Shown piece after piece: positions 41,625 to 41,697 of a stretch of 64,000 nt of DNA. The notes under the pieces are model-generated. The model worked only from the letters and a program-made list of their open reading frames with translations. It was not told the DNA's origin and made no database searches. A program made the translations under genes and the position numbers. How positions within the stretch are numbered: the stretch's first letter is position 1; each line of letters opens with the position of its first letter. Source of the stretch: Myxococcales bacterium (lineage in GTDB: Bacteria > Myxococcota_A > Polyangia > Haliangiales > Haliangiaceae); NCBI GenBank assembly GCA_016794525.1, contig JAEUJY010000077.1, positions 173,091 through 237,090 on the forward strand, written 5' to 3'.

Positions 41625-41697
41625 GGGCTCTCGCGTTTCGGGTTGGGGCCCCGTCGGGGCTTGCCCCGGCGGGGAAGGGGCGTTGCGAAGCCCTTCC
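41625..41697. repeat. Intergenic repeat element, family 2, copy 1: a conserved 28-mer followed by a hairpin.
   Basis: GGGCTCTCGCGTTTCGGGTTGGGGCCCC at 41625-41652 recurs at 48061-48088. It is followed by the hairpin GGAAGGG…CCCTTCC, and it lies between convergent genes. Confidence 0.5.

Follow-up and report, generated by a model that had tools for sequence, protein, structure and literature searches.

A probable new family of REP/BIME-like mobile repeats at the 3' ends of genes in uncultured Myxococcota

The DNA considered here is a stretch of 64,000 nt (the window) from contig JAEUJY010000077.1 of a Myxococcales bacterium (assembly GCA_016794525.1, positions 173,091 to 237,090), which contains three copies of a repeat of ~118 nt, each situated just behind the stop codon of a gene. 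We consider it likely that the repeat represents a new family of dispersed, mobile elements at gene 3' ends, similar to repetitive extragenic palindromic (REP) sequences and bacterial interspersed mosaic elements (BIMEs). It is present in multiple copies dispersed beside unrelated genes, and it always points the same way as the gene or tRNA at whose 3' end it sits. Compared with close relatives, each of the three window copies is an insertion, and the pairing of both hairpins of the repeat is maintained through compensatory changes. The preliminary description of this DNA had noticed two copies of a 28-mer, each followed by a GC-rich hairpin in a gap between convergent genes, and had taken them for a REP-like, terminator-associated or MITE-like family (MITE, miniature inverted-repeat transposable element).

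Filled and empty sites

For the comparison of sites, orthologues were fetched for the genes lying upstream of copies 1 and 2, and three filled-versus-empty site pairs are found in a 7-kb part of the window (the coordinates of the copies are listed in the next section). Site 1 lacks the insert in seven orthologous loci, namely L022 and, with 64-89% protein identity, L150-L153, L155 and L156, where the same convergent stops are 9-30 nt apart compared to 134 nt in the window. The empty site reads ...CCGCGC TGAGC CGCGGCC CTA, and the window reads ...CCGCAC TGAGC, then 118 nt, then TGAGC CGCGCGGCG CTA; CGCGCGGCG-CTA behind the second TGAGC matches the ancestral intergenic sequence of the empty sites. 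Site 3 is empty in L147-149, where the nucleoside-hydrolase gene is kept and its stop lies 9 nt from the stop of the next gene. Here the empty site is ...CTGGGC TGAG CGTCGCCG CTA, and the window has ...CTGGGT TGAG, 118 nt and TGAG CGCGGGCG CTA, the sequence past the insert matching that of the empty site. Both inserts are exactly 118 nt long and are flanked by TGAGC or TGAG, a motif present once in the empty sites.

Site 2 is empty in L157-159 (93% identity, same neighbours; 10 nt compared to 127 nt in the window) and filled in the window, in L022 and in L062, where the element is in tandem. Locus L022, which belongs to the assembly JADJGV01, is syntenic with window positions 38889-48126 at 90-94.5% identity and lacks both copy 1 and the segment 42742-43836. 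The covariance model of the repeat (R1, see below) gave no match in any of the loci fetched by homology. From the empty orthologous sites we may conclude that the window copies are insertions and that the stop codons are ancestral.

Two further observations concern these loci. In two site 2 orthologues (L160, 1252-1345; L161, 1199-1292) a diverged element resembling copy 3 is present in the opposite orientation, at the stop of the other convergent gene, and CCTCCAGGGGC beside the stop 48000-48002 of the window is a possible remnant of the leader of such an element.

The segment 42742-43836 (1.07 kb), absent from L022 and L150-L154, comprises a sigma-70-like promoter site (42789-42816), the nucleoside-hydrolase gene (42823-43716) and copy 3; L147-149 do have the hydrolase gene itself. 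On either side of the segment the window has an imperfect direct repeat of ~15 nt (ATGTGAGCGCCGGCG near 42743 and CTCTGAGCGCGGGCG near 43832), which is a single copy, ATGTGAGCGTGGGCG, in L022. Either an insertion the size of a gene or a deletion between the repeats has taken place, again with TGAG-containing sequence involved.

The repeat unit and its copies in the window

The two 28-mers, GGGCTCTCGCGTTTCGGGT[T/G]GGGGCCCC on the + strand, are indeed found at 41625-41652 and 48061-48088 with 27/28 identity, and none of 100 dinucleotide-preserving shuffles of the window, whose G+C content is 74.6%, gave a comparable match. The 28 nt had been regarded as the repeat unit, but the unit is ~118 nt long, and the 28-mer is its most conserved piece; since its final CCCC is the first arm of a hairpin, it is not a separate unit. 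Besides these two copies the window has a third, diverged one, which had not been noticed.

The sense orientation of the repeat is the reverse complement of the strand first described. In this orientation the stop codon is followed by a leader of 3-15 nt, hairpin A (23 nt), hairpin B (17-26 nt), a C-rich non-palindromic block of ~20 nt and a tail of ~40 nt. Hairpin A has the consensus GAGGGKCTTT-CGC-AAAGMCCCTC, with a 10-bp stem and a CGC/GCG loop. Hairpin B has the form CCCC...GGGG with a variable interior, which may be short (CCCCAC-AAGAC-GTGGGG) or longer, for example CCCCGTCGGGG-GCAAG-CCCCGACGGGG; it is followed by CCCCC or CCCCA, then by ACCCGAAACGCGAGAGCC and by the subfamily-specific tail. 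The conserved block is CCCCC-ACCCGAAACGCGAGAG, and in 14 copies outside the selection by the search pattern only CCCCC[A/T]CCC[G/A]A[A/G]ACG is conserved. As the block is only loosely conserved in these unselected copies, the 18-mer identity among the scan matches described below is partly a product of the search.

Each window copy has two hairpins, which are homologous modules between the copies, their arms co-varying. Thus the GC-rich hairpins of the earlier description stand, whereas their being single and different from copy to copy does not. In the stems of both hairpins 97% of the cells (n = 1,688) are Watson-Crick, and the sets of compensatory pairs are TA65/GC34/CG6, CG99/TA7/GC3, AT80/GC18 and CG81/TA10/GC7. 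There is no excess of G.U pairs (13) over A.C mismatches (13), a pattern expected of DNA-level palindromes or of recent copies, and not of an RNA selected on one strand.

The repeats are mosaic, with tandem hairpin A units, with tandem block-plus-tail units of period 54-62 nt and, in one variant, with ~55 nt in place of hairpin B. Multiple units are always arranged head-to-tail (L003, L004, L036, L043, L057, L062, L086 and the tandem hairpin A units). Short complementarity near the ends (8-nt CGTGTTTC/GAAACGCG) is seen in some copies only, and the short core ACGCGAGA taken alone is not enriched in the window (5 found, 6.2 expected). Speculatively, the runs GGGTGGGGG...GGGGGAGGG on the 28-mer strand might form a G-quadruplex or an i-motif, and the C-rich block might be a site of Rho loading.

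The features of the three copies are as follows (window coordinates, strand, description).

Copy 1 (type B)
41585..41702, sense -, the whole inserted element of 118 nt, absent from the seven orthologous loci
41620-41707, match of the R1 model, 69.8 bits
41703..41707, -, TGAGC of the 5' junction, holding the TGA stop (41705-41707) of gene 41705-42715(-)
41673..41697, -, hairpin A, GGAAGGGGCGTTGCGAAGCCCTTCC on the + strand, from folding and from homologous columns with compensatory changes
41649..41674, -, hairpin B in its long form CCCCGTCGGGGCTTGCCCCGGCGGGG, from folding; this form is also present in L011, L026 and many metagenome copies
41625..41652, -, conserved block (the 28-mer; in sense GGGGCCCCAACCCGAAACGCGAGAGCCC), the most conserved segment across subtypes
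41585..41624, -, subfamily-specific 3' tail, CACGGCGCGGATCGG..TCGACCG being shared with L011 and L026
41580..41584, -, second TGAGC, 3' junction, a direct repeat of the 5' junction

Copy 2 (type A)
48012..48129, sense -, approximate extent, the 3' boundary being uncertain
48056-48135, match of the R1 model, 97.3 bits
48130..48132, -, TGA stop of gene 48130-48732(-), 5 nt before hairpin A
48102..48124, -, hairpin A, the perfect palindrome GAGGGTCTTTTCGAAAGACCCTC, present as the preliminary description had it
48085..48101, -, hairpin B in its short form CCCCACGTCTTGTGGGG
48061..48088, -, conserved block (the second 28-mer)
48043..48061, -, third hairpin in the 3' tail, CCCGCAC AGTCC GTGCGGG, locus-specific, its sequence not conserved in the orthologous copy of L022

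Copy 3 (diverged subfamily)
43718..43835, sense +, the 118-nt insert behind the nucleoside-hydrolase gene 42823-43716
43713-43799, match of the R1 model, 18.7 bits, E = 0.012-0.025
43714..43717, +, TGAG of the 5' junction, holding the hydrolase stop TGA (43714-43716)
43723..43744, +, hairpin A, GGAGGTGCG TCGC CGCACCTCC
43745..43770, +, hairpin B, CTCGGCGGGG CCAGGT CCCCGCCGAG
43771..43794, +, C-rich linker and diverged block, CCTCCCACC AGGACGCGAGACGCC
43836..43839, +, second TGAG, 3' junction, followed by CGCGGGCG-CTA

Copy 3 has its architecture and hairpin B in common with L016 2175-2259 and with a copy in L160. Further weak matches of R1 in the window, at 13726, 63576 and 4243, lie inside coding sequence and were rejected as noise.

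Both 28-mer copies are flanked by convergent genes: copy 1 by 41178-41570(+) and 41705-42715(-), copy 2 by 47292-48002(+), which encodes a lipoprotein-like product and has a G+C content at third codon positions (GC3) of 0.95, and by 48130-48732(-), encoding an unknown protein. The products of the genes beside copy 1 are a protein with a weak, sub-threshold SCP2-like match and an unknown protein. Judged by G+C content at the codon positions, the genes flanking copies 1 and 2 are real, and they are unrelated in function.

Members of the family and their hosts

A search for exact occurrences of the 18-nt core, covering one genome per species, yielded 26 matches. About 15 of them are singletons in unrelated phyla that have no further similarity, and ~17 chance matches would be roughly expected. 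Nine exact-core copies were found on eight contigs of JADJGV01, a metagenome-assembled genome (MAG) of Myxococcales, and two, 140 nt apart, in a MAG of Kofleriaceae, a family within Haliangiales, Myxococcota. Around the cores of both these MAGs the similarity extends over ~75 nt or more, through both hairpins. A metagenome scan, with a pattern leaving the hairpins and the outer end free, gave at least 120 loci, and ~100 true members are among the 120 metagenome loci listed. The R1 model, built from 12 copies, found 114 distinct copies in 100 loci, including copies missed by the exact patterns.

Hence the case in which only the two copies existed, between paralogous genes, named in advance as speaking against a repeat family, does not apply: there are many copies, and their flanking genes are unrelated. 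Its hosts all belong to one clade of uncultured Myxococcota, to which the repeat is specific and which comprises Haliangiales/Kofleriaceae-like MAGs and related metagenome contigs. The window, with the locus tag JNK64_18175, is likewise part of a Myxococcales MAG.

Placement at the 3' ends of genes

The hairpin end of every copy points to the stop codon of the gene on the sense strand. For the first 13 copies, 10 had an open reading frame (ORF) of high GC3 ending 50-67 nt before the block. Among 88 distinct copies, a strict ORF filter was passed by 57, and in 55 of these the stop is located -2 to +15 nt from hairpin A; nearly all copies failing the strict filter have an ORF end 0-15 nt upstream under relaxed settings, lie at contig ends or are second tandem units. 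The upstream genes are diverse and include those for Cpn10, a VWA protein, a Ser/Thr kinase, a 2OG oxygenase and a response regulator. Directly upstream of three copies there is a tRNA-Leu(CAA), found by a tRNA scan in L086 and L107 and indicated in L049 by the same upstream sequence. Thus, the common factor is the gene 3' end, and not translation as such. A recoding, readthrough or SECIS-like role (SECIS, selenocysteine insertion sequence) was rejected, as the distances between the stop and the block fall in all three phases.

Gene directions were assigned by a classifier, checked against known cases, that includes the criterion of a higher G+C content at the first than at the second codon position (GC1 > GC2). 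The downstream gene is convergent for 33 copies and co-directional for 54, that is, 38% convergent compared to a background of 39% when every gene 3' end of these loci is counted. The localization in gaps between convergent genes, noticed earlier, therefore holds for the two 28-mer copies, but for the family as a whole it does not differ from the background.

Preference for TGAG

In 50 of 91 copies TGAG is present at the 5' junction. As a stop codon plus one nucleotide, TGAG is found in 43% of the element-adjacent genes and in 19% of 580 other genes of the same contigs (odds ratio 3.2, p = 8e-5). The frequency of G after TGA is likewise higher in the element-adjacent genes, 54% against 29% (p = 0.001).

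As to the target-site duplications that the preliminary description suggested looking for, TGAGC and TGAG are directly repeated around copies 1 and 3, the two young inserts; the flank tests across the family are negative. The two clean junctions fit equally a short target duplication, an insertion beside a preferred tetranucleotide, or a TGAG carried by the element and landing at the old stop. A 9-nt (L037) and an 8-nt (L123) flank repeat were dismissed, being within the control range, and TGAGCGCG is common to the 5' ends of several copies of that subfamily.

Comparison with known repeats

A REP is defined as a single imperfect palindrome of 20-40 bp with a GTAG/CGTC tag; REPs mostly lie at a distance of <20 bp from the upstream ORF's 3' end and can supply or overlap its stop codon (PMC3733652). 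The repeat described here behaves similarly in being downstream of ORFs, with the stop close to hairpin A in the 55 of 57 copies mentioned above. It also resembles the REP/BIME sequences of Enterobacteria and Pseudomonas in forming high-copy GC-rich intergenic palindromes, in occurring as mosaics and clusters, in its presence both in uni-directional and in convergent gaps, and in presence/absence variation. On the other hand, its unit is ~118 nt and consists of two different hairpins and a non-palindromic block; there is no GTAG beside the hairpins, and in the alignments CGTC/GACG is seen only inside the stem or loop of hairpin B and never unpaired at an end. Its units are head-to-tail, unlike the head-to-head doublets of REPINs. 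Moreover, unlike REP/BIME, it is strictly oriented relative to the upstream gene, and no REP-associated tyrosine transposase (RAYT) was found in the contigs screened.

Miniature derivatives of IS200/IS605 elements, which transpose by single-strand 'peel and paste' through a Y1 HUH transposase recognizing subterminal hairpins at both ends and which insert strand-specifically 3' of a conserved tetra- or pentanucleotide, share with the repeat the absence of terminal inverted repeats, hairpins near the ends and near-perfect DNA palindromes, as well as a single insertion orientation, apparently beside a short non-palindromic target with no obligatory target duplication. They differ in that both hairpins of the repeat are in its 5' half and differ from each other, TGAG is only a preference (43%), and no TnpA or TnpB partner was identified in the contigs screened. 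MITEs (Correia elements of Neisseria, ERIC of enterobacteria) are likewise non-autonomous, ~100-150 nt long, located near gene ends and polymorphic for presence/absence; they are co-transcribed, as the repeat would be. Unlike them, the repeat has no long terminal inverted repeats (the ends of the inserts, TCCTTGG.../...GCAGGCCG and TTTCAGG.../...CAAGCTC, are not mutual inverted repeats); a target-site duplication of fixed length was not detected family-wide, nor was a parent insertion sequence in the ~1 Mb of contigs searched. Of the initial REP/MITE-like or terminator-associated assignment there remains a dispersed hairpin repeat beside unrelated genes; the tag and the single palindrome of REPs, the terminal inverted repeats of MITEs and the U-tract of intrinsic terminators are absent.

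Composite units with some modules tandemly multiplied are also known as BOX (boxA-boxB-boxC) in Streptococcus pneumoniae and as MIRU in Mycobacterium. MIRUs are oriented with the flanking genes in operons, their ends overlapping stop and start codons, and encode short ORFs involved in translation coupling. The modular composition is similar, but there is no sequence relationship, the host phylum is different, and, unlike MIRUs, the repeat has no consistent reading frame, given the three phases noted above.

What sets the repeat apart is its composite 118-nt unit, its strict single orientation, its head-to-tail mosaics, its preference for TGAG and its host phylum. Two REP surveys (PMC3733652, PMC12306157) make no mention of this phylum or of myxobacteria, and no account of myxobacterial REP-type repeats turned up in a targeted search of full texts.

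Possible mode of spread and alternative explanations

We suppose that the repeat is a non-autonomous mosaic element of ~118 nt that would spread by copy-and-paste, with the 28-mer as its conserved core. Tentatively, and as a possibility rather than a probability, it might spread by a TGAG-targeted single-strand mechanism: the insertion would be strand-specific and sequence-targeted, preferring TGAG at the stop codon, and would be performed by a trans-acting enzyme working on hairpins of single-stranded DNA, in the style of REP/RAYT or IS200/IS605. Such an enzyme would explain why the orientation is fixed, why the Watson-Crick palindromes are near-perfect and why terminal inverted repeats are absent. 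Once inserted, the repeat would be transcribed within the 3' untranslated region (3'UTR) of the upstream gene, where a stable hairpin at most 15 nt from the stop may shield the 3' end of the mRNA or influence the termination of translation, as has been described for REPs of E. coli.

Several observations weigh against this scheme. The second, 3' TGAG is uncommon (17/91) and is not associated with the 5' one (p = 0.78). There is no detectable family-wide target-site duplication, the longest flank repeats being equal to those of mismatched controls, although repeats of 4-5 bp in old copies would be hard to detect by such tests. The second TGAGC of site 1 lies 16 nt past the ...TCGACCG 3' end common to other type B copies, and the junction of copy 2 is not clean. 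As some copies follow TAG, TAA or a tRNA, TGAG is at most a preference. A crude motif screen of 1,028 ORFs (~0.9 Mb) identified no mobilising enzyme and only one ORF similar to Y1 transposases (L077, 2276-3017(+), motif HLHFVVE...YVLLN; Y1_Tnp 20.7 bits, below the Pfam cut-off of 23), which is 1.5 kb away from a copy of the repeat and is not flanked by its hairpins. As for a parent insertion sequence, neither orphan tails nor split elements on the two sides of an ORF were seen in ~1 Mb of contigs searched. Finally, at the orthologous site between groES and groEL, where the repeat is located in four contigs, the element core is 90-97% identical, compared to 53-82% for the adjacent downstream spacer and 82-86% for the four-fold sites of GroEL. 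The core being more conserved than the spacer, the retained copies do not decay neutrally, which is more in keeping with selection or gene conversion than with an insert that is purely selfish and decaying.

Two groES-groEL spacers, those of L014 and L064, differ in hairpin B by several paired changes (CCCCAC-AAGAC-GTGGGG and CCCCAGC-ATG-CGCTGGGG). This suggests an independent insertion of different subfamily members or a replacement by gene conversion.

The explanation that survives best next to a mobile repeat is that of a 3'UTR module selected primarily as RNA (a 3'-end stabiliser, a termination modulator or a protein-binding site) and kept by purifying selection, its spread being secondary; we find it rather unlikely. 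It agrees with the strict sense orientation and the hairpin at most 15 nt from the stop, with the compensatory changes in both hairpins, with the ribosome stalling reported for REPs within 15 nt of the stop (as cited in PMC12306157) and with the retention between groES and groEL in the four contigs, where the core is 90-97% identical compared to 53-82% for the spacer. The latter identity, however, would be explained equally by gene conversion among copies, and the equal numbers of G.U and A.C cells are not what is expected of a strand-specific RNA. Since all three window copies are missing from close relatives with otherwise intact genes, the element is dispensable; besides, the block is loosely conserved in the unselected copies. 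No Rfam family was matched either: Rfam 15 gave no match in the window at the gathering threshold, and at E <= 1 there was none on the element in L014, L043 and L086, in a run that also missed the tRNA-Leu(CAA) of L086 (1229-1312) found by ARAGORN.

Less probable again, and in our opinion unlikely, is a stop-codon-homing mobile DNA, which would recognize TGA(G) on the coding strand or, more generally, the place where a transcription unit (a tRNA among them) has its 3' end, and would insert in a fixed orientation. If so, it would constitute a stop-codon-targeting class of bacterial non-autonomous elements that place a two-hairpin 3'UTR module where the terminating ribosome has its footprint, and the homing would possibly be guided by base-pairing as in IS200/IS605, by means of a putative enzyme.

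Termination of transcription could be considered in both directions. In the sense direction there is no U-tract behind hairpins A or B (hairpin B is followed by CCCCCACCC, with no T-run), and terminator-like motifs (a hairpin and GCGTTT(T)CGG, identified by eye and unscored) are found downstream of the repeat in nine loci. Given these two facts and the position within groES-groEL, the repeat is not an efficient sense-direction terminator. A scan of the window for the terminator consensus found two sites, with 1.1 expected by chance, and none inside the hairpins or block of the elements; a nearby site, 48135-48147 (-), consists of a small stem in the last codons of the upstream gene, with its T-rich tail over the stop and leader of copy 2.

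In the opposite direction, the 28-mer strand could form a bidirectional or opposite-facing intrinsic terminator, with CTCGCG as the 3' arm and TTTCGGG as the T-tail, stopping convergent or antisense transcription. The + strand of both window copies does fold with GGCTCTCGCG paired to upstream sequence just before TTTCGGG, one subfamily has CGCGAG-N6-CTCGCG, and the downstream motifs just mentioned occur in the same contigs. But for the last 6 nt preceding TTTCGGG the pairing over 80 copies amounts to 3.65 of 6 positions, compared to 3.63 with shuffled upstream sequence (minimum free energy -29.7 and -28.5, respectively), the downstream gene is co-directional in 62% of copies, and neither the U-tract nor the consensus scan offers anything in its favour. 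We therefore regard such a terminator as very improbable.

The loci with downstream terminator-like motifs are L048, L040, L056, L130, L138, L098, L073, L065 and L007. By eye, the tails GGCGTTTTCGG or GCGTTTCGG behind the GC-rich stem of these motifs resemble the reverse complement of the block, CGCGTTTCGGG.

We would give very little credence to a family of small-RNA genes on the 28-mer strand. A single-stranded conserved 5' segment (the 28-mer as a seed) with two stable stem-loops does resemble many trans-acting small RNAs, but conservation among the copies does not extend upstream of the 28-mer and hence there is no shared promoter, a terminator U-tail and an Rfam match are both lacking, the orientation is tied to the stop codon of the gene on the opposite strand, and the copies number more than 100, some of them with partial units in tandem.

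The least credible of all is a local duplication of paralogous gene ends or an attC-like cassette recombination site: copy 3 does end a 1.07-kb gene segment which is itself present or absent between relatives, but neither in the window nor at other loci are the genes beside the copies related, the presence of copies 1 and 3 does not depend on that of their genes, co-oriented cassette arrays are lacking, and the polarity of the inverted repeats does not suit attC cores. Integron attC cores are RYYYAAC ... GTTRRRY, and the sole complementarity between the ends of the repeat has the polarity 5' GTTTC ... GAAAC 3', which, compared by eye, does not match them; together with the solitary copies at unrelated loci, this led us to reject an attC site.

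The repeat, as a probable mobile family, adds a well-defined set of repeats to Myxococcota and provides a tidy system for the study of how REP-like DNA chooses gene 3' ends and whether it is kept for function. It can break or mis-join assemblies of high-GC MAGs, and it could be used as a marker of strain-level differences and as a natural set of 3'UTR variants.

Other repeats in the window and in related loci

Several other repeats were observed. At 63751-64000 there is a tandem array with a period of ~35-37 nt and at least 7 copies, which runs off the end of the window; its unit holds the palindrome TCCCACGTGGGA (...CGCGATCTCCCACGTGGGACGCCG...). Identical 37-mers GATC(GGGCAC)n are located at 5937-5973 and 27965-28001, 22 kb apart; they probably represent the first dispersed repeat of the preliminary description. 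A coding tandem repeat, (GTCGATGGCCCGGTG)n with a period of 15 nt, occupies 32276-32500 inside the ORF 32147-33643(+). Outside the window, hexamer microsatellites (GGTTCC)n and (GGCTCC)n are situated downstream of the element copies in L065, L007, L063 and L111.

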